A DNA stretch of 62,568 nucleotides, counting the filler, from Asterionella formosa (Eukaryota), in the NCBI GenBank assembly GCA_002256025.1. It is 14 parts of 14 records of this genome, joined end to end, with 100 filler letters (N's around TTAATTAATTAA, not from the genome) between each part and the next. Parts side by side here need not be neighbours in the genome. Positions count along the whole stretch, not along the records: positions 8,974 to 13,359 come from NKIB01013556.1; positions 13,460 to 17,840 come from NKIB01013558.1; positions 17,941 to 22,319 come from NKIB01013559.1; positions 22,420 to 26,794 come from NKIB01013560.1; positions 26,895 to 31,271 come from NKIB01013561.1; positions 31,372 to 35,743 come from NKIB01013562.1; positions 35,844 to 40,216 come from NKIB01013564.1; positions 40,317 to 44,690 come from NKIB01013565.1; 6 more parts are not named here. One strand, given 5' to 3'. Numbering within the stretch: position 1 is the stretch's first letter; the number at the start of each line of letters is the position of its first letter. A model generated the notes under the pieces. It was given only the letters and a program-made list of their open reading frames with translations, did no database searches and had not been told where the DNA came from. This document shows, in pieces, positions 9,524 through 56,757 of this stretch. The position numbers and the translations under genes were made by a program.

Positions 9524-10092
9524 CCTGGTACTCCTGGTCCCAGGCACTACCGGTAGGAGTACTCGCGCAGTAAACCATGGGACCGTAACAGGTACCGGTA
9601 CTCCAGGTACCAGGAACTTTACTCTGTACAGCAATTCCCCGTATTTTTTTCAGTATTTGTAATCGAGCATAGTAGGAGTCGAACCTGGCACCAAGTACCA
9701 GGTACTTTACCGGTAGTCGAATGAGTCTGGCGGAACGAGAAATCAGCATACGACTGGCCGTTTCGCACAGACAGACGCTCATCAATCCTGGACCTCCTGC
9801 CTCCCTGTTGCTTCCTTGCTTGCTTGGTTGGCTGTGAATGAAATCCAAATCCTCAGCCAACTCCTCGTTTATTTACGGGAATTTGCGCGCTGCTACATAA
9901 TGATATACTGGTACTATTATGTAGATGTGCGTAGGCGGGTGCAAATAGGTACGAGCCGAGCGCGATCGAAAGTATAATGCTATCTACCGACCACAGTAGC
10001 TACCGGTAGTCCGCTATACGCCCCAGTATTTTCTTACGATTTATGTAAAATAATTTTGGTCAGCCATATCGAGTTGCATCCCACCCACAACC

Positions 10093-11921
10093 ATGTCGGG
10101 CATGAACCAACCAGCGGCTACAGGATTGGTACGTTTAAGCTCCGTTAGAATCGATATTATCCGAGGAATAATGGAATGGAAATGTCTCAATAGCGAGACC
10201 AACGAAGATGTGTCAGCTACCTACATCGACGCCAGTTCCAATGCTGTCCGTGATGTGGTCTCCGTTCCCCACTCTCGCTCACTCTCTATCACTCACTCAC
10301 TCACACTGCAAACTTTCAGTTCCTCAACGGAACACGCGAGTCCGGAGCAGACGTGCGCATCGGAAACGTGACAGCCGCTCTCGCCGTTGCCAACATTGTC
10401 AAGTCGTCGCTGGGGCCAGTGGGGTTGGACAAAATGTTGGTGGACGACATTGGCGATGTGACCATCACCAACGACGGAGCCACCATTTTGAAGAATCTGG
10501 AAGTGGAACATCCAGCAGCCCGCGTTTTGGTGGACCTGGCGCAACTTCAGGACAAGGAAGTGGGAGATGGAACCACGTCCGTGGTTATCATTGCAGCAGA
10601 GCTGTTGCGGCGGGCCAATGAGCTGGTGCTGCAGGGGTTGCACCCAACCACCATTATCTCGGGATATAGAACGGCGTTAAAAGCAGCCATTGCATTTTTG
10701 AAGTCACACATGGTCCTGCAGGTTAACGACTTGGGAGACGAACACCTCCTCAATGCTGCCAAGACGAGCATGTCGTCCAAGATTATCGGCAAGGAATCGG
10801 ACTTTTTCGCAAAGCTAGCGGTCGAGGCGGTCAAGTCGGTCAAGATGAAGGGGCCAGAGGGAAAGATGAAATATCCGTTGTCCGCAATTCATATTTTAAA
10901 GGCTCATGGGAAGTCCAGTATTGAGTCACATTTAGTGCATGGGGGATTCGCCCTCAACGCGACACGGGCCGCCCAAGGAATGCCCATTGCTGTTGAAGGC
11001 GGCGTCAAAATTTGCTTCCTTGACATGAACTTACAACGTCATCGCATGGCCATGGGTGTGCAAGTTTTGGTAGACGACCCAGCAGAAATTGAAAATATCA
11101 AGAAGCGGGAGATGGACATTGTCAAGGAACGAATTCAAACAATTCTGGATACTGGCGCCAAGGTCGTTCTGACAACCAAAGGCGTTGATGACCTATGCAT
11201 GAAGTACTTTGTCGAAGCCGGAGTGATTTGTGCTAGACGTTGCAATAAGGATGATCTCAAACGGCTTGCTAAGGCTACGGGGGGGAAAGTTGTCACGACC
11301 ATGGCAGATATGGAAGGGAATGAGTCCTTTGAAGCAGACACCTTGGGATCATGTGATGCTGTGCGTGAAATGAGGGTTGGTGATGGGGAAATGTTGTACG
11401 TGTATGGATGCATGGGGAGTGGGGCGTCAACAATTGTCTTGCGAGGTGCCAATGAATACATGTTGGATGAAATGGACCGAGCCTTGCACGACGCCTTGTG
11501 TGTGGTGAAGCGCATGCTAGAGAGTAGCACGCTGGTCCCAGGCGGAGGTGCTGTGGAGGCGTCACTATCGGTATATTTGGACGAATTTGCCACCTCGCTT
11601 GGAACAAGAGAACAACTTGCTATTCAGGAATATGCTGCAGCTCTCTTGGTCATCCCCAAGACGTTGGCAGTAAATGCGGCCAAGGATTCAAGTGAATTGG
11701 TGGCACAGCTCCGGGCAGTCCATGCGAGAAGTCTTAAGGAAGGTGCTGACGAATCTCTCAAGTACATGGGGCTGGACTTGGTGGAGGGGACAATAAGAAA
11801 CAATTTGGAAGCTGGTGTGGTGGAGCCTGCCATGTCCAAGATCAAGTCTCTCCGATTTGCGACAGAAGCAGCTATCACTATTCTTCGAATTGATGATCGC
11901 ATTACACTTCATGCTAACTAG
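10093..11921 (+). CDS. CCT1: T-complex protein 1 subunit alpha (CCT-alpha). Exons 10093-10128 and 10320-11921
   Basis: Chaperonin motifs SSLGPVGLDKMLVDDIGDVTITNDGATIL, GDGTTSVV and alpha-specific KIKSLRFATEAAITILRIDD. A GT-AG intron (10129-10319) joins MSGMNQPAATGL in frame to FLNGTRESGADVR. Confidence 0.97.
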
Positions 11922-12131
11922 AGTAAGTTGAATAGCATTCCAGTACGTTGAATAGTAAATATACAAAACAAAATTTTCTTTTTAGATTAATTTTGTTGCG
12001 AATATCTAACTAACAATGGTTTGCCCCAATCTAGTCTTCTTTCTCGACACTCAACAACATCATGCCCAATAATAGTATATACTATTGGCAGCAAACGCTC
12101 ACATCACAAACATTGCTAAATAATGTGGTCA

Positions 12132-12560
12132 TCACCAGTCATGATCAGCATCTTCCTTGTCACCTTCATTGCCATCATCTGGGGCATCATACACGACAGG
12201 AACATCAACAAAGTCATCTGTTTCTTTGTCGCGTTGAACAGGAGCCTTTTCTCCTTCGATTCTGGTATACTTTTCGTGTGGTGGTAAATTGTTCAATCCA
12301 TGATGACTGCTAAAATGATGGCGACTGCTATGCAAATCAGATGGATCGACCATTTCAACACCATGTTTGTGGTGATGACACTTCAAGGAAGGGACCACTA
12401 GAAATACAATGACAGCAATAGCTAGAAGCAATCCCAGCAGACGGACTTTGCCGGAATACTCAGTATTACTACGACGCGGAGACGGCACAGTAGCAGACTC
12501 TTGTTCAAAACTGAACATGTCGCCCATGGGAATGGCCTCGTACAGTCCTGGAGTGGTCAT
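12132..12560 (-). CDS. Hypothetical 142-aa single-pass membrane protein with His-rich and acidic C-terminus
   Basis: ATG-initiated ORF with one hydrophobic helix (LLGLLLAIAVIVFLVV), convergent with CCT1. No family recognised. Confidence 0.6.
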   Translation of the reverse strand: MTTPGLYEAIPMGDMFSFEQESATVPSPRRSNTEYSGKVRLLGLLLAIAVIVFLVVPSLKCHHHKHGVEMVDPSDLHSSRHHFSSHHGLNNLPPHEKYTRIEGEKAPVQRDKETDDFVDVPVVYDAPDDGNEGDKEDADHDW

Positions 12561-12899
12561 GATGGTGGCTATTGAAGCAGGGATGAATATATTTGGATAC
12601 CTGGTAGAGTGTCAAAAGGCAGGAGGAACGAAGAAATACTATTCTATTTTCCGGTTTTTTATATGAATGACAGTGACGGCTGTGAACTCTGATATTATGT
12701 ACAGTTCCATGTACTTAAACAGCTCTATATTATTTATTATGCTGTAGAGGAAGATGTATAATATAACAAAAGAAGCAGAACGAAGCAGCTGATAAATGTG
12801 TGAAAGTTCGAATGTCCCCGGCTTACATAGCTCGTATGATCCCGGTACCTTTTTTGCACAGCAACCGGTAGTCTAGTGTGTATGGTACAAGGTACCTGG

Positions 12900-13096
12900 T
12901 GAGCGATCTTGCGCATCAATACAGATGTATATAGGGTTAGTGTTATATCATATATGTATCAGAACTCAATAATGAGAGAACTCGACTAACCCTCATTGTA
13001 TACTTTGGTGTCGACTTGGAGAACGAGTTACACACAAGGATTAACAAATAAGCTCATATATTCAACAAATGCTACTACTTCTAGTTAGATACTTCA
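12900..13096 (+). mobile_element. 5' LTR (197 bp) of the same Gypsy-like family
   Basis: Near-identical to 9327-9523. Preceded by GGTACCTGG and followed by CTTTGAAT, like the 41820 copy. Confidence 0.85.
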
Positions 13097-13459
13097 CTTT
13101 GAATCTAATATTGTTGATGTCCTCTCAAGTTCCAGTGGTCCCATTGATGAAGGATAACAACATACTAAACATCAAGATTCAAACTTCTTTGTGTATCCTT
13201 ACAAGCCAGGTCCACATTTGGAGTCTTACAGAAAAGATATGATCAATTGACGCTCAGGGGAAGCTTGTTTATTGATTTCAGTAAATCCTGTGATATGGCT
13301 AACACATATATCTTCAGTCCAGCAGATTCCTTGCTTGTTCACCTACTGCTACAAAAGATNNNNNNNNNNNNNNNNNNNNNNNNNNNNNNNNNNNNNNNNN
13401 NNNTTAATTAATTAANNNNNNNNNNNNNNNNNNNNNNNNNNNNNNNNNNNNNNNNNNNN

Positions 13460-17361: not shown

Positions 17362-19114
17362 GTAACAATAAGGTTTTCAAATTGAGCCTCAAAGAGAGAC
17401 TGAAATCAGCCTAATGAGCCGGAAAGAACCCGTACTGTTACATGCATTTTACATACAATTTTTTTTTTCTCTTCATGATCATCAGATCCTACTCGTCAGC
17501 CAATATCACTTCACCTACCGGTAGCGCGCAGGAGGAGTGCTCAGTTGGTGACACCACTTTTCGGAACAGGCCATAATTCCCGTTATCTAAAAAAGCGAAT
17601 TGCAGACTTTTCATACATAGTAACGGGAGCGCAGCAGCATTGGAGATATATTATCGGCCGGACCTTACGGGCTTGCTAACTTTGATTTCAAGCTCTGAAC
17701 TATTGATGGAAGTCACTCAAACTGTTGTATTAGCTGCACATCTGTACAGGAGAGGACATTGGATAAATCGCTGCCGTTGGAATGGACTCCTTCTTGCTAG
17801 TCCTTGACGCAGTCGTAGAACGATGGCAGGACACACGCAANNNNNNNNNNNNNNNNNNNNNNNNNNNNNNNNNNNNNNNNNNNNTTAATTAATTAANNNN
17901 NNNNNNNNNNNNNNNNNNNNNNNNNNNNNNNNNNNNNNNNTACATACCGGTAGACTGTCAGAATGTGTCTGTTAGGCTGTTGATGTCGACAGTTGTCCGA
18001 AGGCTAGATGTAGTCTGAGGAAGAAATAGACAGTACCGGTAGTCAACAGTATTTTATATAGCAGAAAATAATACCGGTATGCAAACGAGCGCCGAGGGTA
18101 AAAGATCTTGACCGGTCATTACAGGGCAATACTGTAAGTTGCGGTCATTTTGCTTAAACAAACATTTTAATCTGGGATAAAGATAGCTAAATCTTTTGTT
18201 TCAGCAAATTTAATGCAACTTGCTGGAGCGCGCTAGGAAGAGGCGCCAGAAATTTCAACTCACATCCTATGTACAGCCGATATAATTAATACCTAAATTA
18301 CCTAATGGTATGTACGGTCATTCGGTTCAAACTTGACCGGTATATGGTGTTGTATACTGTATACCGGTATACCGGTATGTGAGACAAAAATGCTCTTGTC
18401 AAGCAAGGCTACCACCGACCGGTGTGCCGGTAAATCAATTGAATAGCGATATAGTATATATATATTTCAATTGTTTTTAATACACTGTATATATTTATGC
18501 CGGTATATTATACATAAAACTTTTAGGTGGAAGACGAACCCACGGTGGGGATTTTTCCTCATGCACAATGTAGAATAAATGCCCTGTGTACCGGTATACT
18601 ACGATATCCATCGTCTTATAGTACCAGGTACCCGATACCAGGTATCCTGGTATGATATAATTTCACTCGGTCATCGTGAAAGTTGTTCCCAACAATAATT
18701 TCAGTGTTTCAATTCAATAAGATTGGCTGCCACGAAGGACTGATCATTAGGAGCTCTCTTATACCCGAGCATTCGTCCTAATAAAGTCAAGAAGCTGGTA
18801 TCAACCATTCATAAAGGGTTCCGAGTAAAAGTGCTGCAATCAGTTCAGTTCAGTTCAGTTGTTAGCAAGGCACAATCGTTCCTTCTACTCTGACAGTCCT
18901 TGCTGTTGGTCAGGGGACTCACACAAGCTTCCCAGACGTCTCGGTTACTGCGGCTTCGAACAAGCCAGGGGGGCTCTGAGAACTTGAACGCCTTTGCTTG
19001 CGTCAATAAATTCACGTCGGTAAAGTTCTTGCGCAGCCGCAGCTTGTGCTGCCGAAGCAAATATCCAGGTTTTGTCCAAGTCCACACACGGCTCACTTGC
19101 GGACCAATTCCAAA

Positions 19115-21748
19115 ATGTCAGGGTCCACCAAGAAAACCTCCTCTCCGCCTCTTCCAATCGACGAATGCTTATTCGGGCCCACAAAGCACTGTCCCTCCAA
19201 CGTTTGGGAGGCTGTCCTTTCACGTCATCCCAACTTGGACGGCAATGACCAGACTCTCACTCCTTCCCACAAGGATATTACCGATGACTACATTCCCACC
19301 AAGACATTATCTAATTATATCACGCACTCGGTTCATGAAATTGTTTCTCTTTCCAAAAAGAACAAAAATAACACTCATCAAGTTGATGCCGCTGTAGCGT
19401 TGATTGGAATTGATGACCTTGATGAAGGGCGGTGGGGGTCTGGCATGCAACATGAGGCAGCGGCTGCCAAGGGCCCGCATGTTATTAGTATGCAAGAATT
19501 GAGACGAATTGCTTCTCAAGGGATTGTGGATGAGGGATGCCACAGACCAGTCGCGTGGAGAGTTCTGTTGGGATACTTGCCCCTGGAATTGTCAGAGTGG
19601 AAGGCTGCACTCCTCAGACAACGAATTTTGTATCGCAACCTTGTTGGGGATTTGTTTGTTGAACAACCACGGCATGAAGGAAATGATTTAAGAGGAAATC
19701 ATGGAAAAAGAATTTCGGCGCAACGGAAACTTGCCATGACGACTAAGCGAGATGAGGAAATACCTGACAATTTGTACAAGAGTCCTTTGACAAGTCCTGT
19801 TATCAAAAAGGAAAGTCCTACTAATCATTTGGAACTACTGTTGACTCCAATGTCAGAAAAAACTTTGGTACCTGTAGAAAGATTAAAGTCCAGAGAGGAT
19901 GGAAACGAAAAGAAAGGAATGGATTTTGAGAATGCAATTGGGTCCACCGATGGAATAGAGCCAGTGTCGACGAATGCTCTGCTTGAGATCAACGATAATT
20001 TTCCGGGGCCGCTTGATGCACCGAATGACTTTGTCGATGTATTGAACGATGCAACGGACAAGCAAAAAATTATTCCGCATTCGGAAGAGCCTGGGATCAA
20101 TGGAAAAGCTGTGTCCTCATCAGAGCTAGATGGCCCAGAAATGGATATGCCGGCAGATAACAGTGATCACAATGTCGACGTGTGTCCCAAGCCTATGTAT
20201 CGACGAAATAGACACCGTTCTCGCAGTTGCGATGATAGTATCAAATTATTCGCACCTTCTACTCAACGAAGACTATCATTAGCGCATGATTGTATGCCCG
20301 CCCCACTGGGTGTACGACCTGCCGCGGAAAACATGCTGGAAGAAGCGTGGGACAAACGAAAAGAAGAAGAAGAAATGATCATTCAATCGATTTCGATTGA
20401 AGATGCACTTGCGATTCCAAAGAAACCAGCCAAGAACAAAATGAATTTCAACGATAGTATTTCCTTTGACGACATTGGGGTACCCCTCACGAGAACCGCT
20501 GCAGACTGGATGGCGAATCATTCCGAACATTTTGAGGAAGAGAACGAGGACCTCGAGTTCGCCACGGAAAAAATTCCCACATCAAGTATTTATTCTCCAG
20601 GAAAACAGCTTTCTCGCTCAGAAATGATTCCCCCTCGAATTCGAGACGAATGGAAAAAGAGTGGACGAGACTTGTCAGTTCTGGATCAAATGGGTATCAT
20701 GGATGCTGCCATGAATACGCTACTAGTACTGGATGACGGCGACGACAAGTGCAAAAGGCGAATCTCGGTATCAGATGATCCACTCTCGACTGACGCAGAT
20801 TCCCAGTGGTTTCAGTATTTTGACAATGCCTCCCTATTGGACGAAATCCGGAAAGACGTTGTTCGTACCCACCCTGATCTCTGCTTCTTTCTGGAACCCG
20901 AGAGTAATCTCGGCCAACGCCGATACGCTGCATTGGAACGAATTCTTTTCGTCTGGGCCAAACTAAACAAGGGAGTCCGTTACGTCCAGGGCATGAATGA
21001 GATTGTTGGCACCATTTACTACGTTCTCGCCAATGATATGAACGAAATGTGGGCCTGTGAGGCCGAAGCAGATACATATTTCTTGTTCAATACCCTAATG
21101 ACGGAAATGCGAGATGTGTTTGTCCCGGACTTGGATGATGCCGACACTGGCATTCAAGGTCGAATCAACAACATGACGACCTTATTGAGTCTACACGATC
21201 CAGAAGTCCGTTGCCATTTGGATGATATGGGCATTGATGCTTCCTTTTACGCCATTCGGTGGTTGACGACTCTTTTAAGTCGTGAGTTTCTTCTTCCTGA
21301 TACTATCCGACTTTGGGACTCCATGTTCGCATCGACGCATAAGGACAACTTTATGCGTTATGTATGTGTAACCATGGTGATGATAGTCCGAGCTCAGTTG
21401 CTGAAGGGTGATTTCAGTACCTGTTTGCGGTTGCTCCAAGGATATCCTTCTACCAACATCGATGGTTTGTTGGAATCGTCTCGAGCTCTCTGGATCTACG
21501 AAAGTCAAGTGACACTAGCTTGTCACAAGGGAGGCATGTCTTTGCATCAAGCTTTGACGACCATTACTCCGCCACCATCTTTGCAAATGGCATACGGTCT
21601 AGTTGGAGGCATCGCTAGCAGACTCCCGGATCTCAATGACGAGTCCCCGGCTCCGTTGTCTGGACGAGGAGGAAGCTTCTTGAGTGGAGCCAAGAATTTG
21701 TTTAGTGGACTGGGTCGGGAGACTCGACTAAGACGAACAAACTCGTAG
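19115..21748 (+). CDS. Rab GTPase-activating protein with a split TBC domain (TBC1D13-like)
   Basis: LRRIASQGI..RPVAWRVLLGYLP, then a long low-complexity insert, then DPLS..WFQYF, IRKDVVRT (R finger), YVQGMNEI (Q finger), EADTYFLF and RWLTTLLSREF. First ATG at 19115. Confidence 0.93.
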   Translation: MSGSTKKTSSPPLPIDECLFGPTKHCPSNVWEAVLSRHPNLDGNDQTLTPSHKDITDDYIPTKTLSNYITHSVHEIVSLSKKNKNNTHQVDAAVALIGIDDLDEGRWGSGMQHEAAAAKGPHVISMQELRRIASQGIVDEGCHRPVAWRVLLGYLPLELSEWKAALLRQRILYRNLVGDLFVEQPRHEGNDLRGNHGKRISAQRKLAMTTKRDEEIPDNLYKSPLTSPVIKKESPTNHLELLLTPMSEKTLVPVERLKSREDGNEKKGMDFENAIGSTDGIEPVSTNALLEINDNFPGPLDAPNDFVDVLNDATDKQKIIPHSEEPGINGKAVSSSELDGPEMDMPADNSDHNVDVCPKPMYRRNRHRSRSCDDSIKLFAPSTQRRLSLAHDCMPAPLGVRPAAENMLEEAWDKRKEEEEMIIQSISIEDALAIPKKPAKNKMNFNDSISFDDIGVPLTRTAADWMANHSEHFEEENEDLEFATEKIPTSSIYSPGKQLSRSEMIPPRIRDEWKKSGRDLSVLDQMGIMDAAMNTLLVLDDGDDKCKRRISVSDDPLSTDADSQWFQYFDNASLLDEIRKDVVRTHPDLCFFLEPESNLGQRRYAALERILFVWAKLNKGVRYVQGMNEIVGTIYYVLANDMNEMWACEAEADTYFLFNTLMTEMRDVFVPDLDDADTGIQGRINNMTTLLSLHDPEVRCHLDDMGIDASFYAIRWLTTLLSREFLLPDTIRLWDSMFASTHKDNFMRYVCVTMVMIVRAQLLKGDFSTCLRLLQGYPSTNIDGLLESSRALWIYESQVTLACHKGGMSLHQALTTITPPPSLQMAYGLVGGIASRLPDLNDESPAPLSGRGGSFLSGAKNLFSGLGRETRLRRTNS

Positions 21749-27321: not shown

Positions 27322-27606
27322 TGTTGAATATGTGTAACGGACATGTCGGTAACGGTTACACCAATTACAACGATATTGACAATGACCGCACCAACCATGC
27401 CAGCATGCAAGCTAACGAACAAGAGTGGATCACAGCTGAACCAAGGAATATCAGGATTAGAGATAGTGTGTCTGGTACCAGCGAAACTGGCTCACTTTAA
27501 TTTAATTATTTGGTTTTATAAACGATACCATCCCGGTGTGCTTTTTATCGTCGGATTCGTTGTTTTATGGACACGAAGACATATTGAAAACATTGTGGTT
27601 TCAACA
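27322..27606 (+). mobile_element. 5' LTR (285 bp) of CoDi-like Copia element A
   Basis: Terminal inverted repeat TGTTGAA...TTCAACA, ending 23 nt before the gag ATG at 27630. Confidence 0.8.
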
Positions 27607-27629
27607 TAATTAAATTAAAGTTAAATAAG

Positions 27630-30600: not shown

Positions 30601-31142
30601 GAAGTCGACAAGGAACCCAACCCGCCTGATAATGATGAACCAAGAGCTGACAACAGCGATGTAGATGGTGAAGACAAACACGATCCCGAAGCCACGGAAC
30701 CAGGCAACGGAATAAACGAAGACACTGCCAAACCCAACAATGAAGAAGAGGTCGATGAGGAACCCAGTATCGAACAACGGATTCAACAAATGGACGCCGC
30801 ATATGGCCAGAGACAACACCAATACGATCTGCGGGCTCGCAAGCCTTGCGACTATAGTCACCTACATGTCATACTAGAAGTCACCGTCATGACCCAACAC
30901 AACATAAAGAAAGGGCTAAAAGTATTCGGCGAAGCCGGTGTGGAGGCTGTGCTTAAGGAATTGAACCAATTACATGAACGTGGAGTACTCAAACCAACAA
31001 AAAACTTATCACATGAGCAGCGCACGGATGCACTACAATACCTCATGTTTTTGAAACAAAAACGCAATGGAACAATTAAGGGCCGTGGCTGTGCTGATGG
31101 TCGGAAGCAACGTCAGTACACAACTAAGGAAGAAGCTACATC
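27630..31142 (+). mobile_element. CoDi-like Ty1/Copia polyprotein (gag, protease, integrase, start of RT), degenerate
   Basis: CCHC knuckle CHRCQKKGHYATEC, protease WILLDNQSTVDVF, integrase DIMFV/MDGQF/EHVPEVE, RT start KGRGCADGRKQR. Frameshifts near 29090 and 29705. RT is cut off at about 31142. Confidence 0.93.
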
Positions 31143-31260
31143 TAAGACGCGAAATACGCCACTTTTCGAAATTTCGTCTACGTATGAGTGTTAATTATGT
31201 GGTACTTCACATGCATTAATGCCACTCTTCACGTAAAAAAGATTACTTTTAACTGTTTCA
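31143..31260 (+). repeat. 118-bp dispersed repeat that truncates the Copia RT. Inverted copy at 46549-46666
   Basis: Reverse-complement match with 3 mismatches in 118 nt. Confidence 0.9.
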
Positions 31261-38027: not shown

Positions 38028-39307
38028 CTACTCCGCCGTACTGGTAACTTCATGTTCTTCACCTTCCGTTGGTTCTTCTGGCACTGGGTCCTTCATTTCC
38101 AAATAACTTTTGTCAAAAAAGTGCAACCTCACATATCCGTCTTCAGCGCCACTGGCATAGGATCGTCCATTGGGATTAATGGCCAATGCATTGATGGGAC
38201 CAAAATGTCCCTTGACACTGGCAAACTCTTCTTCATAGACCAAGTGAAAGAATCTGGTTTCAAATTTTCCCACTTTTCCCGACGTGGTGGTAACTGACAT
38301 GGCTTCTTGTCCACCTCCCAACAAGATATGATCCTTGGTTTCCGAAATGACAGCATCGTTGACAGGACGGTCCGTCTTGTATGTTTTCAACTGTTTAAAA
38401 TCCACAGCATCCCATAATTTGGCAGTGCAGTCCGCCGACGATGTAATAAAGAGAGTCTTGTCTTTGTTAAAATAAATGCGGTTGATCTTTTTTTCGTGCG
38501 CCATGAAATCGTCTACTTCATCTCCAGTGCTTGGATCGAACAACCGAATGGCTCCATTGTCAAAACAAACCATAATGGCTTCATTGAGTGGCATCCAACA
38601 AATGTTGGTGGGATTGATTCTCTTGGAGTTTTCCTTTGGTAAATCAATTTCTAAAACTGGGTCTTCACCACCTTGGTTTAGATGATAGATGCTTATCTGA
38701 GCATTGTGTTCCACGAACGGATCCGAAATGGTGGCAAACATTTGTCCACCCTCGGCCCATGCCGCCCCTCGTACTGGACCATGATGGGTAAATGTTTGAA
38801 TGCATTCTCCTGTTTCACAATTCCACATGCGTGCCGTACTGTGTGTGTGTATTGTTGTTGTTGAGTGTGTATTGTTGTGGTTCAGAGTCAAGGGATAGTG
38901 TGAGTGCTAGCGTAGTACACATGATAAGTCGATCAGTTTCGTGCAACACAATTCAGAACTGACACATGTCAGTTTAGGACAATACGTACGCATCAGCAGA
39001 AGCAGTAATGACTCGTTTACTGAAGCGATCGACGTCTAAATCCCAAATAGTGCCTTTGTGACCATGGAATGTTCCAATCCGCTCCCCATCCGATGAACGC
39101 CACATGGAAGGGACATGATCTTTGGAGGCAGTAAAGAGTAAATCTCCGTCATAATTGTACTTTACCACCGTAATGGATCGCTCGTGTCCTCGAAGAAGAA
39201 TAGGTCTCTGTGCAGTTGTGAGGGACTTTGTGAGAGAGCAGACGCCACGGCTACGCCCTTGCGGTCCGAAACACTTCGCTCGAGACTTCCGGCAGTCTAC
39301 TTACCAT
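38028..39307 (-). CDS. EIF3I: Eukaryotic translation initiation factor 3 subunit I (WD40). Exons 39307-39305 (ATG only), 39207-38990 and 38838-38028
   Basis: MRPILLRGHERSITVVKYNYDGDLLFTASKD...GGGQEAMSVTTT...KGHFGPINALAINPNGRSYASGAEDGYVRLHFFD. Canonical splice sites restore the frame. Confidence 0.96.
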
Positions 39308-40559: not shown

Positions 40560-40980
40560 AACTTGAGCCATGGCATCACTGGAACCCTTGTTGATCAGGC
40601 TAGTACAGTATCGCAATCATGAGGAATGAAAAGAAACAGCGCGAAGGGCGATTGCAAGAAATAAACGATACACAGCCGGTCTTCATGTTGCTGCAGGCAG
40701 GTACTTCAACTTTTGAAGTGGTTGATGAAGAGTTGAAAAGGAAGAGGCGTGCCGAAGGAGTGCAGTGTGAGCGAGAGTATAGTAGCTAAGAAAATAGATG
40801 CACACACGGCGCTTGCAAACAAGTTTGATGCAATCAGAACTCTAAACAAACAGTCAACAGAGTGCTGGACAGTAGCGCAAACGAAAACAACGGCAGCATG
40901 TTATAAGCGAGCAGGCAATCTTCCATTACCAACAACGAAGCAACTTCTACTTACCAGATACCATGACACTATGATGTGTG
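40560..40980 (+). pseudogene. Degraded ORF remnant, possibly a transposase C-terminus
   Basis: Coding-like but frameshifted. WTVAQ...YKRAGNLPLPTTKQLLLTRY resembles helical tails I associate with diatom DNA-transposon proteins (pattern recall only). Confidence 0.3.
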
Positions 40981-41034
40981 GCGATGCTGAAGGCAATACT
41001 GGTACACGCCCGAGGTGGTCTCTTGCCTGCGAGG

Positions 41035-41626
41035 CCTTAAGGTCTTCTAGTGTTAGGGAGGGCATAGCCTCAACCATTGTTACCACTTCTGAGTACTCCT
41101 TAGGTATTTTGTCAAGTATGTGGGCAATCATCTCGAGATCCTTCTTTTCGTAAGCAGAATCAATCGTCGCCATTCGATTCCTCAACAACTCGAGTTGGAT
41201 GAACCACTCATCTGGGTCTTGCGTCTCCCCCTCACAGATGCACTTGTTGAACTGTCCTGACAGTTGGATTAAGTCGCTTGTAGCATTAGGAACATAGCGA
41301 GCCTTGAGATAGGTCCAAGCAAGGAATGCATCGCCGTCTTGATGATTCTTTGTCTTGGCTTGGTTAACCAAACCAAACGCAATCCCAGTGCAACTCATAA
41401 TCAGAAGCTGGTATGCGCGGTCGTTCATCTCGTAGATTTTCTTGACATCGTCTTTGTCTGTAGTTTCGTAGACAGCATTGCTGCATGGAATGGTATCCTT
41501 TATGTAGGCATTCTTGAATCCTCTTGTGTTGGCTAGTGCAAGTGTCTTCACACTCCACTCATGCCAATTGGCGTCCTCGCCATCAAACTTCACAAGGCGA
41601 ATGGTCTCACCTTTGTCTTCAGTCAT
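41035..41626 (-). mobile_element. Copia gag fragment (N-terminal FDG..W..W motif plus UBN2-like region), 3'-truncated
   Basis: MTEDKGETIRLVKFDGEDANWHEWSVK...DAFLAWTYLKARY...DPDEWFIQLELLR...IAHILDKIPKEYSEVV. Confidence 0.85.
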
Positions 41627-41819
41627 GTTGCAAAACGAAGTTGATCCGCTTGCAAGCATGTTAAATTCTTCTGCAGTCTGGCTGCAATGCTAGCTCTTTC
41701 TAGACAAGCTCAGTGTAATAAAACTTTCTGTTCTAATCCAACCTTATTGTGAGCTTATTTGATCTATCTTGTAATCGTTCACATGACCAATTATTTGACA
41801 ACGCGGTACCGGTACCAGG

Positions 41820-42026
41820 TGAGCAATCCTACACATCGATAAAGATGTATATAGTAGAGTTAGGGTTATATCAAATACTATATTGGAATTCAGTAATGAG
41901 AGAACTCGACTAACACCCATTCTATACTTTGATGTCAGTTCAGGAAATGAGTTGTACATAAGGATTAATTAATAAGCTCATATATTCAACAAACTCTACT
42001 ACTAGTACTTCTAGTTAGATACTTCA
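41820..42026 (+). mobile_element. 5' LTR (207 bp) of a Gypsy-like element, diverged member of the 9327/12900 family
   Basis: TGAGC...AGATACTTCA, colinear with the other copies. Left flank is GGTACCAGG, and a gag ORF begins 40 nt downstream. Confidence 0.85.
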
Positions 42027-42065
42027 CTTTGAATTCAAAAAGAGTCGAATTAGAAGACAACAAAC

Positions 42066-43190
42066 ATGGCAATGTATTCAAGGGTTCCTGTGATTCCTCT
42101 GATCAAAGACTACAATGTATTGACTATCAAGACTAAAACATTCAGAGTTGCTTTACCCGGTGTAAGGTTTGAATCATTTTTTCAAGATATGATCGATGGA
42201 AACTCGGTGGAAGCATTGTTAATTGGAGTGAATCAATTTCGTGACATGGCTAACACATGTGCCTTTAGCCCTGCAAATACCTTTTCCTACTTTAAAAGGT
42301 GTTTGACTGACATTGCCTCATCAGATTGGTTGAATGTGGAAGTACACCCAGAAGATCAATCCTACAATAGTTTCGATGAAGCGATGGTTTTATGGTTAGA
42401 CAATCGTTTACCAAACAAGAGTTTTCAACGTCAACAACAATGGATGCTACGTTATTTATCTAAACCCTTTTCTATGTTGGTAATGGATTTCGGAGCTCAT
42501 ATTAAAACTTTGAACAGGCTACTTCAACTAATGCCTCATCCAGAAGATCAAGTTGGATTGTCAAAAGAAGATACGCGGATTATCATTATCCGTTCTATGC
42601 CCGATGAGTGGCAACAAGAGTTTGAATTAAATCATGCGAAGACTTCAGACCAATCGATTCGCTTGGTTCTCGCTTATTTCGAGAGTCAACAATCGTTTAA
42701 GAACCAAAACAAGCATCTTCCCAAGAACAGTTTTCAAACAATCACACAAAACCGTCTTCGTATTGCTGATGGCAATTGTGGGATGCGTCAAGAAAACGAG
42801 CGTGTCAGTCGTCAATTCTACAACGATAATTTTACTCCAAGTGGTCGTGGAAGAGCGCGTGCTATTGTCAATGCAGCCGGAAACGCATGGGATCGTCAGG
42901 CAACTGTTCGTTATCAAGCTCTCAAGCCAGTCGTACGTACCATGATTAGCGTGGTCCTTGCCTGGTACATCCTGAAGGTGCACATACTTGGGGCAATTGT
43001 TTCCAGAATCCTCTTACTCAAGGTGGTCGAGCAGGTCGCATGGCTGGTCGTCATAATCGACGTGGCCGTTCCAGTTTCGGTACATGAGGACATTTTGGTG
43101 GTCATGGAGGCGGTTCACATAGCAATCCAACGGAAAGCTACCACACTGACACTGCTAACCCTGTGTCTGTTCCACATGTTCGTATGTTAA
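42066..43190 (+). mobile_element. Ty3/Gypsy-type gag, frameshifted. No pol visible downstream
   Basis: Q..WMLRYLSKPFSMLVMDF...LNRLLQLMP...IIRSMPDEWQQEF capsid-like pattern, plus an out-of-frame CHHC knuckle CLVHPEGAHTWGNC at 42959-43000. Confidence 0.75.
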
Positions 43191-43567
43191 ACAAATTGTT
43201 GATTGTTGATTCGATCTCACCATCGGCGCCGACCACAAACTCTCATTCGCATTCGATTGTTTTCACATCGTTCATTTGTCTTCTACATCTGTCTAGCTGT
43301 ATAATACACTACACAGTAGCAGTAGTCAATTATATTGAGTAATCTCTATCAAAAGGGTGTTATTTGGCATTCAAAAAAAAGTACCTTCTTCCGCTCATTC
43401 GCCGCATCGGCAATTTTTTTTCGTTTCGTCGTGAAGTTTTGTTTTTCCCGACCATTACACTATTTTGGCTACGGAAGTAATCCACAGTAAACGATCAGTG
43501 CACACATTTATTTTCTTCACGTACCACAATACTACTACTGGTACCAGTACCCACACCAACCTTCTGT

Positions 43568-48495: not shown

Positions 48496-49261
48496 TCAAA
48501 ATTCCACGTAGCGGTTTCAACCCACTTCATTGGAGGTCTGACTGGCTCACCAATTCCGAAATGATGAAAAATCTTAAAATATTTCCATGTGTTTATGCTG
48601 CCTGTAAGCGTTATAAAGTTTGAAACGGAAGAGCGCTGCCACCTTTCACAGCAGAATAGCTGACTACCAACTTCAATTTGCTGACTGCGGACTTCTTGTT
48701 GCGAACTGCTGACTTGATTTGCTGAAAATTTGAAATATTCGCTAACTGCTGACTTCATTTGCTGACTACTGACATGCAGTCGCTGACTGCAAACTTCAAC
48801 ATGCTGACGTCAAGCACGCTACTTTGTACACTGGGAGGTACGGGAAACTCCGTACTTCCTCGCTACGTGGAAAACTCCTTATGTCTACTATCGTGCACAG
48901 ACCTCGCTGTTTTTTTTCAAATATCTTGCAAAATTTTAGTTGCGCGTTCTTCTGCGAAGTTCGCGTACTTTTTGAAAAGTACGCGCGACTACCATTTCAT
49001 CGAATTGAGTTTGAGCTCTGATCAGGCATTATACATTCACTCAACACATTTCCCTGCAAAAGGTAGTACCGGTATATAACATCGATCTGTTGTTGTTCTT
49101 GTTCATGTTTGCTGATTTTGCTGCTTGTTTCTTGTTTGCTTTGTTGCTTTGTTGCTTTGTTNNNNNNNNNNNNNNNNNNNNNNNNNNNNNNNNNNNNNNN
49201 NNNNNTTAATTAATTAANNNNNNNNNNNNNNNNNNNNNNNNNNNNNNNNNNNNNNNNNNNN

Positions 49262-52200
49262 ACGACGTCCGGGTCCACATGCGAAATCTTGTTGTCGTCT
49301 ACATACCACGCAATCGTACACTGCTTCCCGTTGATTGTGCAGTTAGCAATGCAAGAGTCGTAAGGGTTTAACACAAAACCCATCTCTTTTAGGGTGTTGT
49401 GGAATAAATCATACCATAGTAGGGCAGATTTGACGCACCCATAAATCGCTTTCACTAGCCTGACGTACAACACTTTGTTTCCTTTCTCGTTGGACACAAA
49501 ATTCGTGTGCTCTGGATTCATGTTGCATACTATATCGACTGATTCACCAGTGAATTTCATAACAACGAAATCATCCATGTCTGCTTTTAAATACGCACCC
49601 GCCACATCTGCTGTGGCGACATCTCTTCCTTCATGTGCATCGATCATGATGGACAACATGAGTGCATCGGTGGATACTGTTGGAGATGCCGTCTGCGACT
49701 TGTCATAAAGTGATCGCTGCGGTCTCCCGTCGGCTACTGTACGCCCCTTGAGGCGCCCGTCTCTCTTCTATTTGATGAAATTGATGGCTCGGAGCGCTCC
49801 CGTCCTCTGTTCCCTGGTAAGGGAGTTCGCGCTTACGGGTTCGTACACATCCAGCTCCTCTAGTTGTGCAAATTCTCTCATCAGGGCGGCCTCCGCCGCT
49901 TTCCCGTGTTTCTTTATTCCCGCCTTCGCGGTCATCTGGTTCATTACATACCCAAAAATATGTTTACTTGTGTTGTCGTCTGCGTATGACATCTTTGTTC
50001 GAAATCCGCGTTGTACGAACTGTCTTGGTGGAAAGTATGACTTGTTGCTATGCGGTGCATCAATGGCCTGCTTGAACTGTTCACTTGTGGCTGCCCGGCG
50101 TTGTCGGGGATTATATGGTCTGTGTTCTTCCGCCAACGCTCCTTGATCTGCCACCTCAATGATCGCTGTCTCTTCCATAGGCGCTCCTTGGTTTTCGTCG
50201 ATAGGCGCCCCTTGTTCCAAGTGCGCTCCTTGGTCTTCGTTGTGTTCTTGTTGTATGTAGTCATTGTAGACAAGCGCGACATCATCAATGTCGATCGTGT
50301 TTGGGTCTCCTGGGTTTGGCTCGACTGGATTTGGCTCGACTAGCAGTGCATCGTCCAAAACCGTAGGGTGTGGCCCATCATGGAGCAGATCGGCAACTTC
50401 GTGATCATCGATGGCATCAAAATCCGCGGAGTTAAAATCGTCAATAGGTTGATGTGCGGCAGGCTCGTAGTCCCGGTCGTATTCGTTGTTGTCAATGTGG
50501 TGATCGGTGCGCCATTCTACAGCTAGGCCTCTGGCCTGGATGGGGGGCTGCCCCTCATGTGCCGCGAGCGCCTCCACGCGGGCAATGGCGGTGTCCGTCA
50601 TGGGCAACTCCGTCCAATTATGTCGGGAAATTTTATTGCCGGTTGCAAGAGACATGAAGTAGTAGTCACCTTGGACATTACCAGTGGGGGTAAGGGCAAT
50701 TGCCCCGAGGGAACGCGCTTGAAGGGTGTTGGATGGGTCGTTGTCTTCAAAAACTTGGACGTAGGTCCCAAACTCAATGCGCATTTGGTTGTATTCTGGG
50801 TTGGCAGCGCCCGTGACAATGCATGCAGGGCTCATGGTGTCTGAGATGCCGTTTGCCCATGGGAACTGGTTTAGACATCGAACGGCATCGATCACCATAT
50901 GGTTGATGATCACCCGTGGAAGACGCTTGAAAGGTAGGCCGTGTGCGCACGAGCGTAGTCGCTCCTTGATGGTTCGGATGGACCGTTCCACTTCACCAAC
51001 GTGACTGTCGGCAGGTACAATGTTTAATGCGATAGGTTGCAATTCCTCACGAACACACTCGAGTTCACTGTCAGCATGCACATCACAAACCTGTAAACCG
51101 CGTAGGTGGTAGAGGCGGACCGCACTCCGAATTTTGCGTAGAATGGTAGTCTTGGTCCGGTCGGGAACCAGGTCCACGGTTCGGAAACCGATGCCGCGTG
51201 AGATGGTATGAAAAAATGGTAGACCCTGCACAAAGAAGAAATCGGCGCACAACGTTACGTTGTGGTGATGCTCCAGGATTGGGGCAGGAATCGGTTCGGC
51301 CACAAACGTTGGCGCTCTTGGGGCGGCGCGCGACCGCGTAGTTTTACCTTTTATGTCAGCGATGTCTGGACCGTAAATAATGAGGGCGCGCTTGGCGTCG
51401 TCTGGCGTCACTGGGCAATTTCTAATCAAGTTGTTCCATAGGATGGATTGGAATTCCACCTCGGCAGGCCGCCCGATCTTTCTATACAAGTCTCTGGCTG
51501 TATTGGCTGATTGAATTTCACGTCGTGAGAATAGTTTCTTCTGTTCTGCTACTGTGGATAGCATGGTGTAACCTGTAACATTGTCGTTAGTATCGTTGTT
51601 ACAACTAAACACATATAGTCCTGAGGGGTGCTCAAGAAATTTCATCACAGTTCCATCGAGTCTATGGACAAGCATCGCGGGCTCGTCCGCAGAGTCCATG
51701 GTGACACGGCATACCTTGCGCACCTCAGCAAGGGAGAGGATGTTGGCAATTGATTCACGGTTGTACCAAACCTTACCCAAGTTGGGAAAATCTCCTACCA
51801 TGTTGGATTTCTGGTAGCCCCCATTTGTGAGCGCCCTGAGTAGTGTCGACTGCGAGTCAAGAAGGATCCACTTAGGATCAATCCCAGGGTCGCCGGTCTG
51901 TGTAAGCATGTATGCATACTGCGTCAATGTAGTGCCTGAGGTCGTCGATCCCTGCCTGTCAGGGCAGTCTCCCGTGTAGTGTCCTAGGCTTTGGCAGTTG
52001 TAACAGATGATGCCATCATGTAACACTCCATTATTGCCTGCGATTTCGCCACGTTGCGCAAACGTCATTGCGCTGGCCTCAGGGCTTCCAGTCGGCTGGG
52101 AGCGTGGTGTATCTTTCCTGACATTGGTGTTCGTTGGAGTTCTGTAGTTTACGAGAAGGCTTTGGGCTGACAACAAATCGGTGGGGTACTGGTCAATTCC

Positions 52201-53094
52201 CATTGCATACTGGTTTGACAGGTCAGCGATGAGGGTGCCATACCTGGTGGGGTCAGCACTTTGAATCAAAGCGATTGCAAGGGTGCGTTCACGCGCGATC
52301 TCCTTTCGCTCTTCAATGCTACGCCAATTCCTGTCCTGATCCTGGAAGGATACCAGTTTATAATTTGCTGCCACGGTGCCGCCATGGTACTCGATGGTCT
52401 CAGCCCATCCTCGCAAACACTCAACGTAGTCTTCTGCGGACTGTCCTTGTAACTGACGACAAGTGAGGAAACTGGTCTGGGCGTCCAAAAGTGCAATGAA
52501 ACCATTCCTGCTCTGATCGAACTGTAAAGTAATCGACTTGATCTGTTTTAGAAGCCAAAAATAATCGTTGTTGGCAGTCTTGTCCTTGTAGTCATCGTGC
52601 GTTTTGACCTTTGCCTTCATGTCATCATTACACTGGCCCCAAATCACCGCATACACTGTTGCTAGGTTGCTCTTCAGGTAATGATTGCGCTTGACATACG
52701 TTTTTACTTCTTCTGCGAAAATCATTTTCATGGTCAGTCCTGCATCATCATCTAGTTCATCTGGCATGTCTACCATGGGAACCGCCATGGTGTCGGCAAA
52801 CAAAGGGGCAAGGTCTTCAGAGTACTTCAGTGTTTTCCTCACATATCCATCTACAACTTCTAACGTTTTGGCGTACTGGCGTCTGTCACTTTGTTCTTCA
52901 TAGCATTCAAATACGTTTCCGTTCATGCCCTCTGTGCTGCCCTTAAAAATGCCACGGTTGTTGCTTGTCGCTTGTGTCCTTCCCTGGCCGCCACGGCTCC
53001 CGCGCGGACGGTTGTCCCTTCGCCCTCTCCCACCGGTGCTGCCGCGTCCACTCGCTAAGCTGCCGCTGGTCGATGCGTCTGGGGTGGCACTCAT
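49262..53094 (-). mobile_element. CoDi-like Ty1/Copia polyprotein B (gag, protease, integrase, RT), cut by the gap
   Basis: CYNCQSLGHYTGDC, WILLDSQST, ADFFFV/HADSE/HVGEVERSIRTIKER, RT ADVAGAYL...KAIYGCVKSALLWY...YVDD. In-frame TAG at 49768-49770 and an apparent deletion in the protease. Confidence 0.95.
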
Positions 53095-53291
53095 GGGGTT
53101 CGTTGGTCAAATCTCTTCAAATTGTCGCTGTTGGTTCCTTGATTGGTGGCTGCGGCCTTCAGCTGCGCTACTCGAATCTGTAAAATGTTCAAAACCGCGA
53201 TTGAGATGTCGAAACTCCAGCCTTCCATGTGAGTCTCAAAAAGAACGGCTGTTCCTTTTGTTTTACTTTATTTTATTTTATCTCGAAACAA

Positions 53292-53631
53292 TGTTGTTCC
53301 AACTACCGTAATCGACCGTATCGTAGGCCTTGAACCTAGTACTGTGTTAATCGAATACAGTTGATGAAATTGATAGCAACGAAGGAGTTGTCAAACTTAA
53401 ACTTTCACTTTACTAACTGGATTGTTTCGAGATAATGGTCTCGAAACACTCTTATTTCTCACATTGCATTTTAACATTTTTTCCTGACCTCTGATTGCTT
53501 TTCCTTGCGTTGTGCCTTTTACCACGTCAGCCCAGGTAAATCTTGGTAGCGGCTGTACGGTTTTAACTGTAGTACTGTTCTCTCTCGTATCTACTATACC
53601 CTTCACTCCTGTCCTGTGGCAGTCAGCTCGC
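53292..53631 (-). mobile_element. 5' LTR of Copia element B (its 5' end lies in the gap)
   Basis: Ends in ...GGAACAACA on the minus strand, about 200 nt upstream of the gag ATG. The boundary is inferred from the CAACA terminus. Confidence 0.7.
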
Positions 53632-54334
53632 NNNNNNNNNNNNNNNNNNNNNNNNNNNNNNNNNNNNNNNNNNNNTTAATTAATTAANNNNNNNNNNNNN
53701 NNNNNNNNNNNNNNNNNNNNNNNNNNNNNNNTTTGCAAATTTCCACTGATTTAAATATTTCAAATGGAATCACGTCATTCAAAAATAGCTAATTAAATCC
53801 TTAATTCCAGGGAATTTTGGCAACCCTAAGCAATATTTAAATTTTTGCCTAGGGTTTCAAATGTAGCAATCTTAAATATAGATATACCCCGGCCTGTGTA
53901 CTACATGTATATAAATAATACATTGTATGTATGGATATATTTTATTATAGCTAAGAATACTGGTCCCCCCATAGATTTGAAAACTTTATGCCCCTACCTC
54001 AATAGATAAGTAAACGCATGATCTTGGTAAATGTACCACATGGAGCACTTGTCACTTCTATAGAAATATTGGTTTAGGATCAATAGCATGTCCTAGTGCA
54101 TGGTGATTCAAAACTGACAAATGCCACAATGGGCTCTTCCTTTTTGGACTGGCTACATTTAATATACAATGAAAACTGTAACAAGTACAATGCGGTAAAC
54201 AAAGCATAGAACCGCCATGAACTGAGGATGATCATCTTCAACGTACTTATCATCTCTAATATCTCTAGTTTTCGCAATTTTTTACACTTTAGGGACTTTT
54301 TCTGCACACCAGTCCACTACTCCAAAAAATATTT

Positions 54335-54866
54335 GCTGATGTCTAATTTTATCAATACACATTCATTCTGAGCAAATTGACACTCCAGATGTAGACATTG
54401 CTTGATCTCGTGCACTTTGAATACTTTAATAGATAGAAACGGCTGCAAATTGGTGGAGAGAAATGTATTTAATTTTTGTGGCTACATTACAGGTCATCAG
54501 TCTACAAGCACCAAAAACAGTATACATGCTGATGGGTAATTTGCTCAATATGCATTTGTCCTGAGCATATCAGTACTCCAAATGTAGACATTGATCTCTT
54601 GTACATCGAAAACTTTACTTGATAAAAATTGGCTACAAATTGGTGGAGAAAATGGATTTGATATTTTTTGTGGCTGCATTATGGATCATCAATCCACAAG
54701 CACCAAAAATAGTATACATGCTGATGCCTAATTAGCTCAATGTACATTCGTTCTGAGCATATTGATACTCAAAATTTTGGCATTGATCTTTGTATATCAA
54801 ATACTCTACTAGCAGAGAGAAATCGGCTGCAAATTGGTGGAGAAAAATGGATTTCATTTTTTTGTG
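54335..54866. repeat. Degenerate tandem repeat, about 190 bp x3
   Basis: GCTGATG..., CTGAGCA, CATTG and GGCT.CAAATTGGTGGAGA recur at about 190-nt spacing. Confidence 0.85.
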
Positions 54867-55679
54867 CATCACTGCTTCTGGACTATCTATCGCAGAATAC
54901 TAGCATGTTCTTGTAGTAATTTGAAATAGAAAATTGCCATTGTGGACTCCTCCTTTTCGGACTGGCTATGTTTAGTGTACAACTTTTGTCTCCGCCATGG
55001 TGCTTTCCGCCCCTGCCCCTGCCCCTGCCCCTGCCGCCCCTCTCCTCTCCTCCCCTCCACTGGCAAATCTCCCATGGAGGTTGATCCCCCATTGATCTAG
55101 CATCCCTCCTGGCAAAACCACCAACCAAATCCACCAAATCCTATGGAAAAATGAACGGCACTGGGCAACTATATCTCAGCGCCTACTTCCAGCACCATTC
55201 TCTTATTCTCTCTCCTCCAGTTCTCACAACCCTTCCTGATCCCTCTCTCCTCTCGCCTTCCTTCTCCCTCCCCTGTGACCACCCACATAACAAAAGAAGA
55301 ATACATTGCAACCAACCTCCTCATGCGGCATCCCAGACCTATAGTCGCCCACTGGTACCAATTTTGCCAATAGTTCATGTTCCCTCTCCTCTCTATCCTC
55401 TCCTCGTCTCCCCAATGCTGGCTCCCTAGCACCACCCCATTATGTTGTTGACCCTATTACTACAAGATCAGTTCACCCCTTTGATGTCGGATTTCAGAAT
55501 TTGTGGCTTTTCTTTCAACTTTCGATAGTATGCAAGACTAAGAATTGAATATTGTAAAATCCCACATAAATGATGAACAAGAAGTACTTCAGTCACTTCA
55601 TTGGTCACTTTGTCCTCATAATATTTTATACCACCTATATCTTCAGAAAAGTAGATAGCTCTAGTCTACTATCAGAGAT

Positions 55680-56515
55680 CTAGACATCCGCAGTATTCTG
55701 CTCAGTTGGCTGGTCGATAATGGTAGTATAGCTTCGCTTTGAGTCAATAGCATCATTTGCAAGTCCTGAGTAAGCAGTATGGGTCAGTTGGAGCAAATGT
55801 GTATTTACCATTAATAGGAAAAAATGCTGGTACATACCATCAGCAACACAGTTGTCTTTTCGATACACATGTTCAAAAGACACTTGTAGTGGCAAGAGGG
55901 ATCTTATTTGGCTCAAGGTTGAATTTACTTGATGGTAAAGGGGCAATAGGTTGGGACTTCGACATTCATTGTTGCCACTTAGTTGTTGAATTATTAAGTT
56001 CGAGTCTCCTTTCACTTCAATGTAAGCAATCCAAGTTTGCTCGCCTTTTGAAATATTAGATATAGCATTCTTAGCTTCCAAGAGGCCACACAATACGCCA
56101 TTATACTCTGCCTCATTATTGGTGGCTCGGCCAGATATTTTCGAACATGTATTTTTTGCTGTTTCAAGGTGTGGCCAGATACTGTTTGCTCCATAACCAC
56201 GACTTCCGATCCAGCGCCGGATAAACCCGGATTTCCGCGTGAACCGCCGTCAAAATGAATTCCGATCAATATCTTACGAGTTGGTTCTATCTTCCTTCGT
56301 TTAGGAAGTGGTGACTTTTTGGATAACGACGGATTGGATTGTTTTGGTGTATCAATCTTGTTTGCCTCGACAAAATTTTCAGCTTCCGCTTTAGAAGCAA
56401 AGCTTTTGAACTTTGCTCCCTTGAAGCCCTTCACTTGGGCCTCGCACTCGCACCACGAGTTGAAAATACCCAGTTGGAGACCGACAGCGACAGCGTAGTA
56501 CTTCGTTTTGGCCAT
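55680..56515 (-). CDS. Ribonuclease H1: N-terminal hybrid-binding (viroplasmin-like) domain plus archaeal/plant-type catalytic domain. One frameshift near 56130 and a probable intron at 55837-55766
   Basis: KYYAVAVG...GIFNSWCECEAQVKGFKGAKFKSF, FDGGSRGNPG, ATNNEAEY, KGDSNLIIQQ, HVYRKDNCVADGLANDA. Confidence 0.85.
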
Positions 56516-56757
56516 CAGATAAAGTAGACGGTATCAAATGATTCTCATTTCTCTATCGCTATTTTACGTTTATGGTAGAACCGATAAAGCGTCTGGAGCA
56601 GAGTATTAACGCTACACCAAGTAAGTTTAAACCAATATTATATGATCGCATGAACAACGAAGCAAAACCAAAAGCACAAATGTGATGTTGTGGTTTTGCC
56701 GAAGGCAAGACACGCCCGAGATGCATGTGTTCGTTCCTGTGAGTACCTGGTACATGG

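Follow-up and report, generated by a model that had tools for sequence, protein, structure and literature searches.

Junctions between long terminal repeats and host DNA

The stretch of DNA analyzed here (the window; 62,568 nucleotides) comes from the diatom Asterionella formosa (GenBank assembly GCA_002256025.1) and consists of 14 contigs of ~4.37 kb each, joined by spacers. It carries host genes together with pieces of long terminal repeat (LTR) retrotransposons of the Ty3/Gypsy and Copia types (Table 1), and at four positions an LTR end meets host DNA within what appeared to be a common palindromic motif. Specifically, the first junction reads CA 9523|CCTGGTACT, the second GGTACCTGG 12899|TGAG, the third GGTACCAGG 41819|TGAG and the fourth, on the minus strand, CA 56758|CCATGTACC. 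The original prediction had reported these four flanks from three contigs, and direct reading of the sequence bore this out. The first three junctions adjoin clear LTRs of ~197-207 bp that start with TGAG and end with CTTCA, and all four are ends of a single Ty3/Gypsy LTR group, which comprises a coding-competent family B and a non-autonomous family A. For the CCAAA flank mentioned in the same prediction (in connection with its own elements A and B, looked at in passing), no corresponding junction was found.

A 13-bp palindromic target with a fixed 5-bp duplication

With respect to the genome as a whole, counts were made in the 68-Mb assembly, where the LTR 3′ end AGTTAGATACTTCA occurs 591 times. 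At 242 of these places the LTR runs into the internal sequence CTTTGAA, and the 349 others represent a mixture of host junctions, mutated internal ends and contig ends, with haplotype duplicates kept. CCWGGTA (W, A or T) directly follows 216 of the 349, where 0.2 would be expected from a background frequency of 5.8e-4 per strand-position; the background for all such densities was 200 kb out of two long contigs.

For a closer view of the flanks we used 155 junctions (100 right, 55 left), taken from loci L001-L175 and L186-L205 and each with its own sequence over the first 25 bases of flank. This sample is non-random, as it was drawn from top LTR matches (obtained with a query that contained one flank C), contig-order pattern matches, integrase matches and hand-picked regions, and it includes at least one mis-called junction (L167). 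Within it, 109 flanks start with CCWGG, 101 with CCWGGTAC (found at 4.3e-4 of background strand-positions), and 119 have at most one mismatch to CCWGGTACC. Reading outward from the LTR on both sides, the consensus bases are present in 93 (C), 86 (C), 94 (W), 86 (G), 89 (G), 92 (T), 88 (A), 88 (C) and 74 (C) per cent of junctions, followed by a drop-off. Families A and B are alike in their match to this target, and CCWGGTAC is found in 59 of 79 of the youngest copies and in 42 of 76 older ones.

At 21 sites the two sides could be paired. The 5-mers are identical at 15 (13 CCWGG, one ATGAC and one CAAGG), differ by one mismatch at 3 and disagree at the remaining 3; the middle base agrees in 19 of 21, the full GTA-CCWGG-TAC is present in 9 and the full 13-mer in 5. 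Taken together, the outward consensus and the paired 5-mers define the target as the palindrome GGTA[CCWGG]TACC, in which the bracketed CCWGG is the 5-bp duplication. The target spans 13 bp and holds ~16 bits, as summed from the per-position values of the 155-junction matrix relative to base composition. The flanks are thus strongly enriched in CCWGG/GGTACC over background, and the idea of sequence-guided integration with a 5-bp duplication centered on a palindrome is strongly supported, the target being longer and stricter than was proposed. The motif also lies outside the element terminus: at the 242 places noted above, CTTTGAA follows the 5′ LTR, and a site flanked by ATGAC on both sides places the LTR end at CA. 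A competing assignment, LTRs ending in CAC with a 4-bp duplication, arose from the query with one flank base and is ruled out by the symmetric matrix and by the same ATGAC/ATGAC site. We regard sequence-directed integration by this one Gypsy group as nearly certain.

Exact register and rejection of a sister word

The host word GGTACCWGGTACC is abundant in the genome, with 9,910 perfect copies as compared with 5 for a reversed control. In the background sequence it lies outside open reading frames (ORFs; at least 150 codons, 37% of sequence) in 79 of 82 cases, and it occurs in 6 of 7 gaps between divergent genes, 9 of 24 between tandem genes and 2 of 8 between convergent genes. When the orientation of genes next to junctions was compared in a crude way over 55 long flanks, 24 pointed away and 22 toward, with none in 9 cases. 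The motif had been proposed to be promoter-associated; its non-coding location is clear, and the lean toward divergent gaps weakly suggests a promoter link. The orientation test came out even. Both this word and its sister TACCGGTA, which is the array word minus its middle base, are almost entirely non-coding, and a literature search found no paper on them. Separate copies of the element lie 12 to ~230 bases apart in four loci (L097, L098 at G000:C1361, L099 and L160), and in L098 only CCAGGTACCTGG stands between two elements, corresponding to neighboring repeat units of one array.

One alternative is that the preference is regional or structural only, with nucleosome-free arrays of bendable palindromes being favored and the consensus simply mirroring array sequence. 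The word is indeed ~10 times denser in junction flanks than in the background (0.4% vs 0.04% per position), and weak palindromic preferences are described as general among LTR elements in the available portions of two earlier studies (PMC6911290, PMC3276498). The register of insertion, determined from an earlier set of 145 junctions, argues against this alternative. The word starts at position +1 in 66% of cases, at +2 to +7 in none, and at +8, the next 7-bp unit, in 21%, with 0.4% at other flank positions, which puts the exact +1 position 150-fold above local density. Moreover, in 42 of 95 matched flanks the word is not found again within 200 bp on the same side. The outer bases behave similarly, as TAC follows CCWGG in 101 of 109 junctions vs 173 of 746 background cases, and stands at the equivalent place in 29 of 46 junctions lacking CCWGG vs 1.5%. 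A further test is provided by the sister word, which belongs to the same arrays. TACCGGTA and TACCWGGTA number 96 and 82 in the background, and 79 and 120 in junction flanks, and nonetheless 104 of the 155 junctions start with CCWGGTA, one with CCGGTA and none with ACCGGTA. The register and sister-word tests largely refute a purely regional preference, which we now consider improbable. Exact register and rejection of the sister word would instead favor a symmetric integrase complex that reads the target directly, as against regional tethering, and an odd-length palindrome would suit a complex with two-fold symmetry whose cuts are 5 bp apart.

The adjoining Copia element does not share the target

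The fourth junction had been taken as the end of a Copia element, and hence as a sign that Gypsy and Copia elements share the target and that a host guide acts independently of superfamily. This was suggested by the arrangement in the window, where the Copia 3′ end continues directly into ...AGATACTTCA|CCATGTACC. Bases 56758-56785, however, have 96% identity to the Gypsy LTR end, and the junction proved to be that of a Gypsy LTR remnant which the Copia element adjoins. When the Copia 3′ region was compared with the genome (47 matches, 30 loci examined), 26 of the 29 other loci stopped at ...TATTCG, 25-29 bases short of the supposed end, with one stopping ~10 bases earlier and two at a contig end. 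The terminal 25-28 bases of the window copy were found in 0 of these 29 loci, and because a TGG primer site immediately follows ...TATTCG in two loci, this is the true Copia end. Beyond it, 17 distinct sequences were collected, of which three were excluded (the window's own, a primer site and an internal inverted arrangement); as a control for the Gypsy result, CCWGG stands at the start of 0 of the remaining 14 host flanks. Shared use of the target is refuted for this Copia family, leaving the notion of a superfamily-independent guide with virtually no chance of being correct. The LTR of this family (window 56786; L062-L087) ends in ...TTCG rather than CA, and an inverted arrangement of its 3′ region occurs in seven loci (L079-L085).

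Coding capacity and affiliation of the Gypsy element

Full-length copies of family B are ~5.2 kb with LTRs of ~195 bp, and encode gag, protease, reverse transcriptase, RNase H and integrase. The element is probably a Ty3/Gypsy retrotransposon of a diatom lineage. The pol order is protease-reverse transcriptase-RNase H-integrase (LFDSG protease motif, RVT_1, RT_RNaseH, Integrase_H2C2 and a D-D-E core), and paired TG...CA LTRs, a polypurine tract and a fixed short duplication are likewise features of this superfamily. The nearest reference for the reverse transcriptase is Ty3 (7q5b, E 3.7e-100; 4ol8), and 4ol8 also ranked first in a fold search. The integrase comprises a zinc finger, the D-D-E core and a GPY/F-SH3-like module, and terminates immediately ahead of the polypurine tract; neither a chromodomain, a long tail nor env was seen in the integrase frame, in a Pfam search (no chromodomain match) or in a structural model that ends in a small beta module. 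Modeling from a single sequence was useless (predicted local distance difference test, pLDDT, 37), whereas a model from 20 sequences (pLDDT 73) and the fold search bore out a Ty3-like pol; the latter two revealed no specificity residues. Integrase frames are free of stops and have identical scores in many copies, and LTR pairs in 10 elements are 90-99.5% identical.

Family A elements are 4.2-4.5 kb and have stops in their coding remnant (e.g. window 8974-9523, L092, L093 and L170). Their LTRs have the same ends as those of family B and are 99-100% alike among the 40 best matches. Because their coding sequence is decayed while their LTRs are nearly identical and share these ends, family B probably mobilizes family A in trans. 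In the metagenome contigs L176 and L177 the 3′ LTR runs straight into the internal 5′ region, which corresponds to one-LTR circles, tandem copies or collapsed assembly; the ends of L176 carry adapter sequence.

A palindrome in place of the primer site

In terms of priming, the 5′ LTR is followed by C and a perfect 12-bp palindrome instead of a TGG tRNA primer site, a usual though non-universal feature of Ty3/Gypsy elements. Besides near-identical copies, the palindrome is present in 4 of 4 readable distant or independent loci (L177, L181, L182 and L184; positions L181:330-341, L182:924-935 and L184:760-771). The window copy reads TTTGAATTCAAA, a 63% relative has TCTGAATTCAGA, with a paired change at positions 2 and 11, and 35-41% relatives have TATCGTACGATA. 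The palindrome suggests that priming may be carried out by the element's own RNA. Self-priming of this kind has reportedly been remarked upon in Repbase for a Thalassiosira Gypsy element, and a literature search found no paper on it. Hairpin priming is mentioned for chromoviruses in the available part of one paper (PMC3601003).

Mechanism of target selection

Building from these observations, we propose that two complementary DNA (cDNA) ends would be joined 5 bp apart in GGTA[CCWGG]TACC, each after the A of GGTA^CC, with consequent duplication of CCWGG; near-match targets are used in ~1 of 5 cases and poor matches in ~1 of 7. Each half of a symmetric integrase complex would read one GGTACC-type half-site directly, through bases and shape, and family B would supply the machinery for family A. 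The benefit to the element may be a plentiful, non-coding landing site, available about once per 7 kb. Judging from sequence comparisons, integration in which the integrase itself reads the target is the reading we favor, and we hold it to be probable.

The original prediction left open guidance by sequence or by a host factor. Sequence guidance is upheld, and a host factor is less favored than direct readout. It would take the form of a host DNA-binding protein that recognizes TACCWGGTA and through which the integration complex is tethered exactly on or above the site that the protein binds, in the manner of TFIIIB with Ty3 or Sap1 with Tf1. The 9,910 copies of the word, its non-coding location and its lean toward divergent gaps are what would be expected of a bound cis-element. 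Strand transfer nevertheless occurs at the center of the word rather than to one side, offsets +2 to +7 are never used, and an additional targeting domain is missing from the C-terminus of the integrase. In addition, retention of outer or inner bases at near-cognate sites is graded, and a Copia element in the same genome ignores the word. We therefore view tethering of this kind as unlikely, albeit the most credible of the alternatives.

A further possibility is that the pattern arose after insertion, through selection removing other insertions, later addition of motif units at LTR edges (such as transposon scars), or assembly artefact. Visible copies are survivors only, none of the comparisons turned up an empty allele, and many junctions lie at the ends of short contigs. 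A register exact to the base is, however, beyond the reach of selection; left and right 5-mers agree, including the middle A vs T (19 of 21) and the off-consensus ATGAC and CAAGG; the match to the target is at least as good in the youngest copies as in older ones; and the flanks diverge outside the word. Such an origin seems very remote.

Returning to direct reading by the integrase, several observations weigh against it. Three or more mismatches are found in 23 of 155 junctions, among them at least one mis-called junction (L167) and old copies. In ten metagenome loci, relatives with flanks came to a single host junction from a close relative and a complete element from a distant one. The former, the independent metagenome junction L178, reads CCTGGTGCC and fits the target with one mismatch; the latter, L182 (integrase identity 41%), lacks a flank of this kind in the one case available, and because of this the trait is not tied to an integrase lineage. 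A second Gypsy family was sought as an internal control by a reverse transcriptase search with a distant query, and the 20 loci recovered all proved to be members of the same group or decayed fragments. Where identical copies lie at contig ends, they may represent averages made by the assembly. An empty allele was not encountered; the CCT-alpha stretch of the window matched only its own locus in the assembly. Lastly, the same statistics would be expected if a host protein bound TACCWGGTA and not TACCGGTA and positioned the complex above the word it occupies. Comparison of contigs from four other runs with the full-length copy L142 gave no clean empty-site joint among the best 15 of 57 matches, and element depth in these contigs was far above host depth. 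A loose-end consensus ending in GTACCTG (agreement 0.37) was too weak for use.

Comparison with known systems

As a rule, the sequence preference of retroviral-type integrases is weak, and host proteins direct them to their targets; Ty3 is placed by TFIIIB and Tf1 by Sap1, and the duplicated sequence varies. The diatom element resembles Ty3 (Pol III starts) and Tf1 (Pol II promoters) in its targeted, gene-sparing integration near gene starts, with Ty3 as the best structural and sequence match, and differs in that its duplicated bases are fixed.

According to the available sections of one review (PMC5408687), only the errantiviruses of Drosophila and the two-ORF elements derived from them (gypsy, ZAM and Idefix subgroups) integrate sequence-specifically, with targets of 4-6 bases (TATA, CGCG or ATAT), AGT/AnT ends and no GPY/F. 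In a second paper, likewise available in part, Drosophila Gypsy duplications are mostly 4 bp and AT-rich motifs reach at most 3 bp beyond (PMC3276498). The diatom element shares with errantiviruses, so far as these excerpts describe them, a Ty3/Gypsy integrase and a palindromic, sequence-specific target centered on the duplication. It differs in its 5-bp duplication, in a GC-rich 13-bp target reaching 4 bp to each side and in its diatom host, and it has TG...CA ends, a GPY module and no env, which full errantivirus forms carry. Its targeting is errantivirus-like in its working, and the features of membership in that group are lacking. The chromodomain found at the integrase C-terminus of chromoviruses is also missing from the diatom element.

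Among other comparisons, only a slight palindrome preference is given for plants in the accessible text of one paper (PMC6911290). Rice Tos17, cited there with the consensus ANGTT-TSD-AACNT (TSD, target-site duplication), is similar in having a palindromic consensus around a 5-bp duplication, and differs in belonging to the Copia superfamily and in that its consensus only flanks a variable duplication. The GyDi elements of Maumus et al. 2009 (PMC2806351) have the same pol order and also come from diatom hosts. The available portion of that paper mentions no target motif, and its supplement, which lists duplications, may bear on novelty. A recent preprint (bioRxiv 10.1101/2025.10.24.684338) concerns insertion ages only in the part available. 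A literature search, which covered neither most subscription journals nor Repbase, found no report of this target. Among named proteins, the closest to those of the element come from Nitzschia inconspicua (50-51% over integrase) and Attheya, in keeping with a diatom host, and no relatives were found in a viral collection. Of labelled sequencing runs, those containing more than half of the CCT-alpha stretch are algal or freshwater metagenomes.

Host genes and other features of the window

Of the window junctions, three are upstream of a host ORF, at distances of ~240-570 bases, and the other is upstream of a Copia gag remnant. Between 9327 and 13096, two same-direction LTRs with 98.5% identity flank a single CCT-alpha gene within 3.4 kb, and recombination between the LTRs at 9327 and 12900 would delete or circularize this gene. 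Elsewhere, ordinary host genes are found at 55683-56515, 19010-21745, 38031-38906 and 31857-32585 (RNase H1-like, Rab-GAP TBC, eIF3i and V-ATPase H), and other repeats at 27588-31191, 49261-53106, 40904-41689 and 1376-1900 / 59759-60286 comprise remains of Copia-type gag-pol and another repeat family.

Table 1. Features at and around the four junctions, in window coordinates
Feature	Position	Strand	Remarks
3′ internal end of a family A (non-autonomous) Gypsy copy	8974..9326	+	Integrase C-terminal remnant; 4 stops in tblastn match; 88% to family A element L093
Polypurine tract GTGTGGGAGAG	9316-9326	+	Precedes 3′ LTR at 9327
3′ LTR, family A, 197 bp, TGAG...CTTCA	9327..9523	+	
Host half-site CCTGG-TACT	9524..9532	+	Duplicated 5-mer 9524-9528
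Host GGTACC/CCWGG/TACCGGTA array	9533..9720	n/a	Upstream of CCT-alpha gene
Host TCP-1/CCT-alpha chaperonin gene	10093..11921	+	PF00118, E 5.6e-155; putative start codon; lies between two same-direction insertions
Host half-site GGTA-CCTGG	12891..12899	+	Duplicated 5-mer 12895-12899
5′ LTR, family A	12900..13096	+	98.5% identity with LTR at 9327
Start of family A internal region	13097..13359	+	Primer-site palindrome partly deleted in this copy
Host half-site GGTA-CCAGG	41811..41819	+	Duplicated 5-mer 41815-41819
5′ LTR, family B (coding-competent)	41820..42026	+	
Perfect 12-bp palindrome TTTGAATTCAAA	42028..42039	+	Primer-binding position; no TGG tRNA site
gag region of truncated family B copy	42054..43191	+	94.8% to full-length L142 across 41820-43191
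Host RNase H1-like gene	55683..56515	-	PF01693, PF13456; points away from fourth junction
Host half-site CCATG-TACC	56749..56757	-	One mismatch to consensus; 5-mer 56753-56757
Gypsy-group LTR, last 28 bp (U5 end)	56758..56785	-	96% to Gypsy LTR end; no Copia part
Copia-type element 3′ end	56786..58100	-	RNase H frame 57195-58100; LTR ending ...TATTCG; adjoins Gypsy LTR remnant

Implications

Roughly two copies in three lie at the exact center of the host word, and this degree of sequence choice is rare in the LTR class. The fuller picture, in which the integrase alone reads a 13-bp GC-rich palindrome, the host word provides thousands of safe sites and the same lineage primes without tRNA from a 12-bp palindrome, is one to which we give even chances. 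If true, a compact integrase with a target of ~16 bits, together with relatives of 50-65% identity, would constitute a system for finding target-reading residues and a starting point for site-preferring integration tools. For the host itself, hundreds of recent insertions lie in non-coding arrays near genes, where they may shape regulatory variation.

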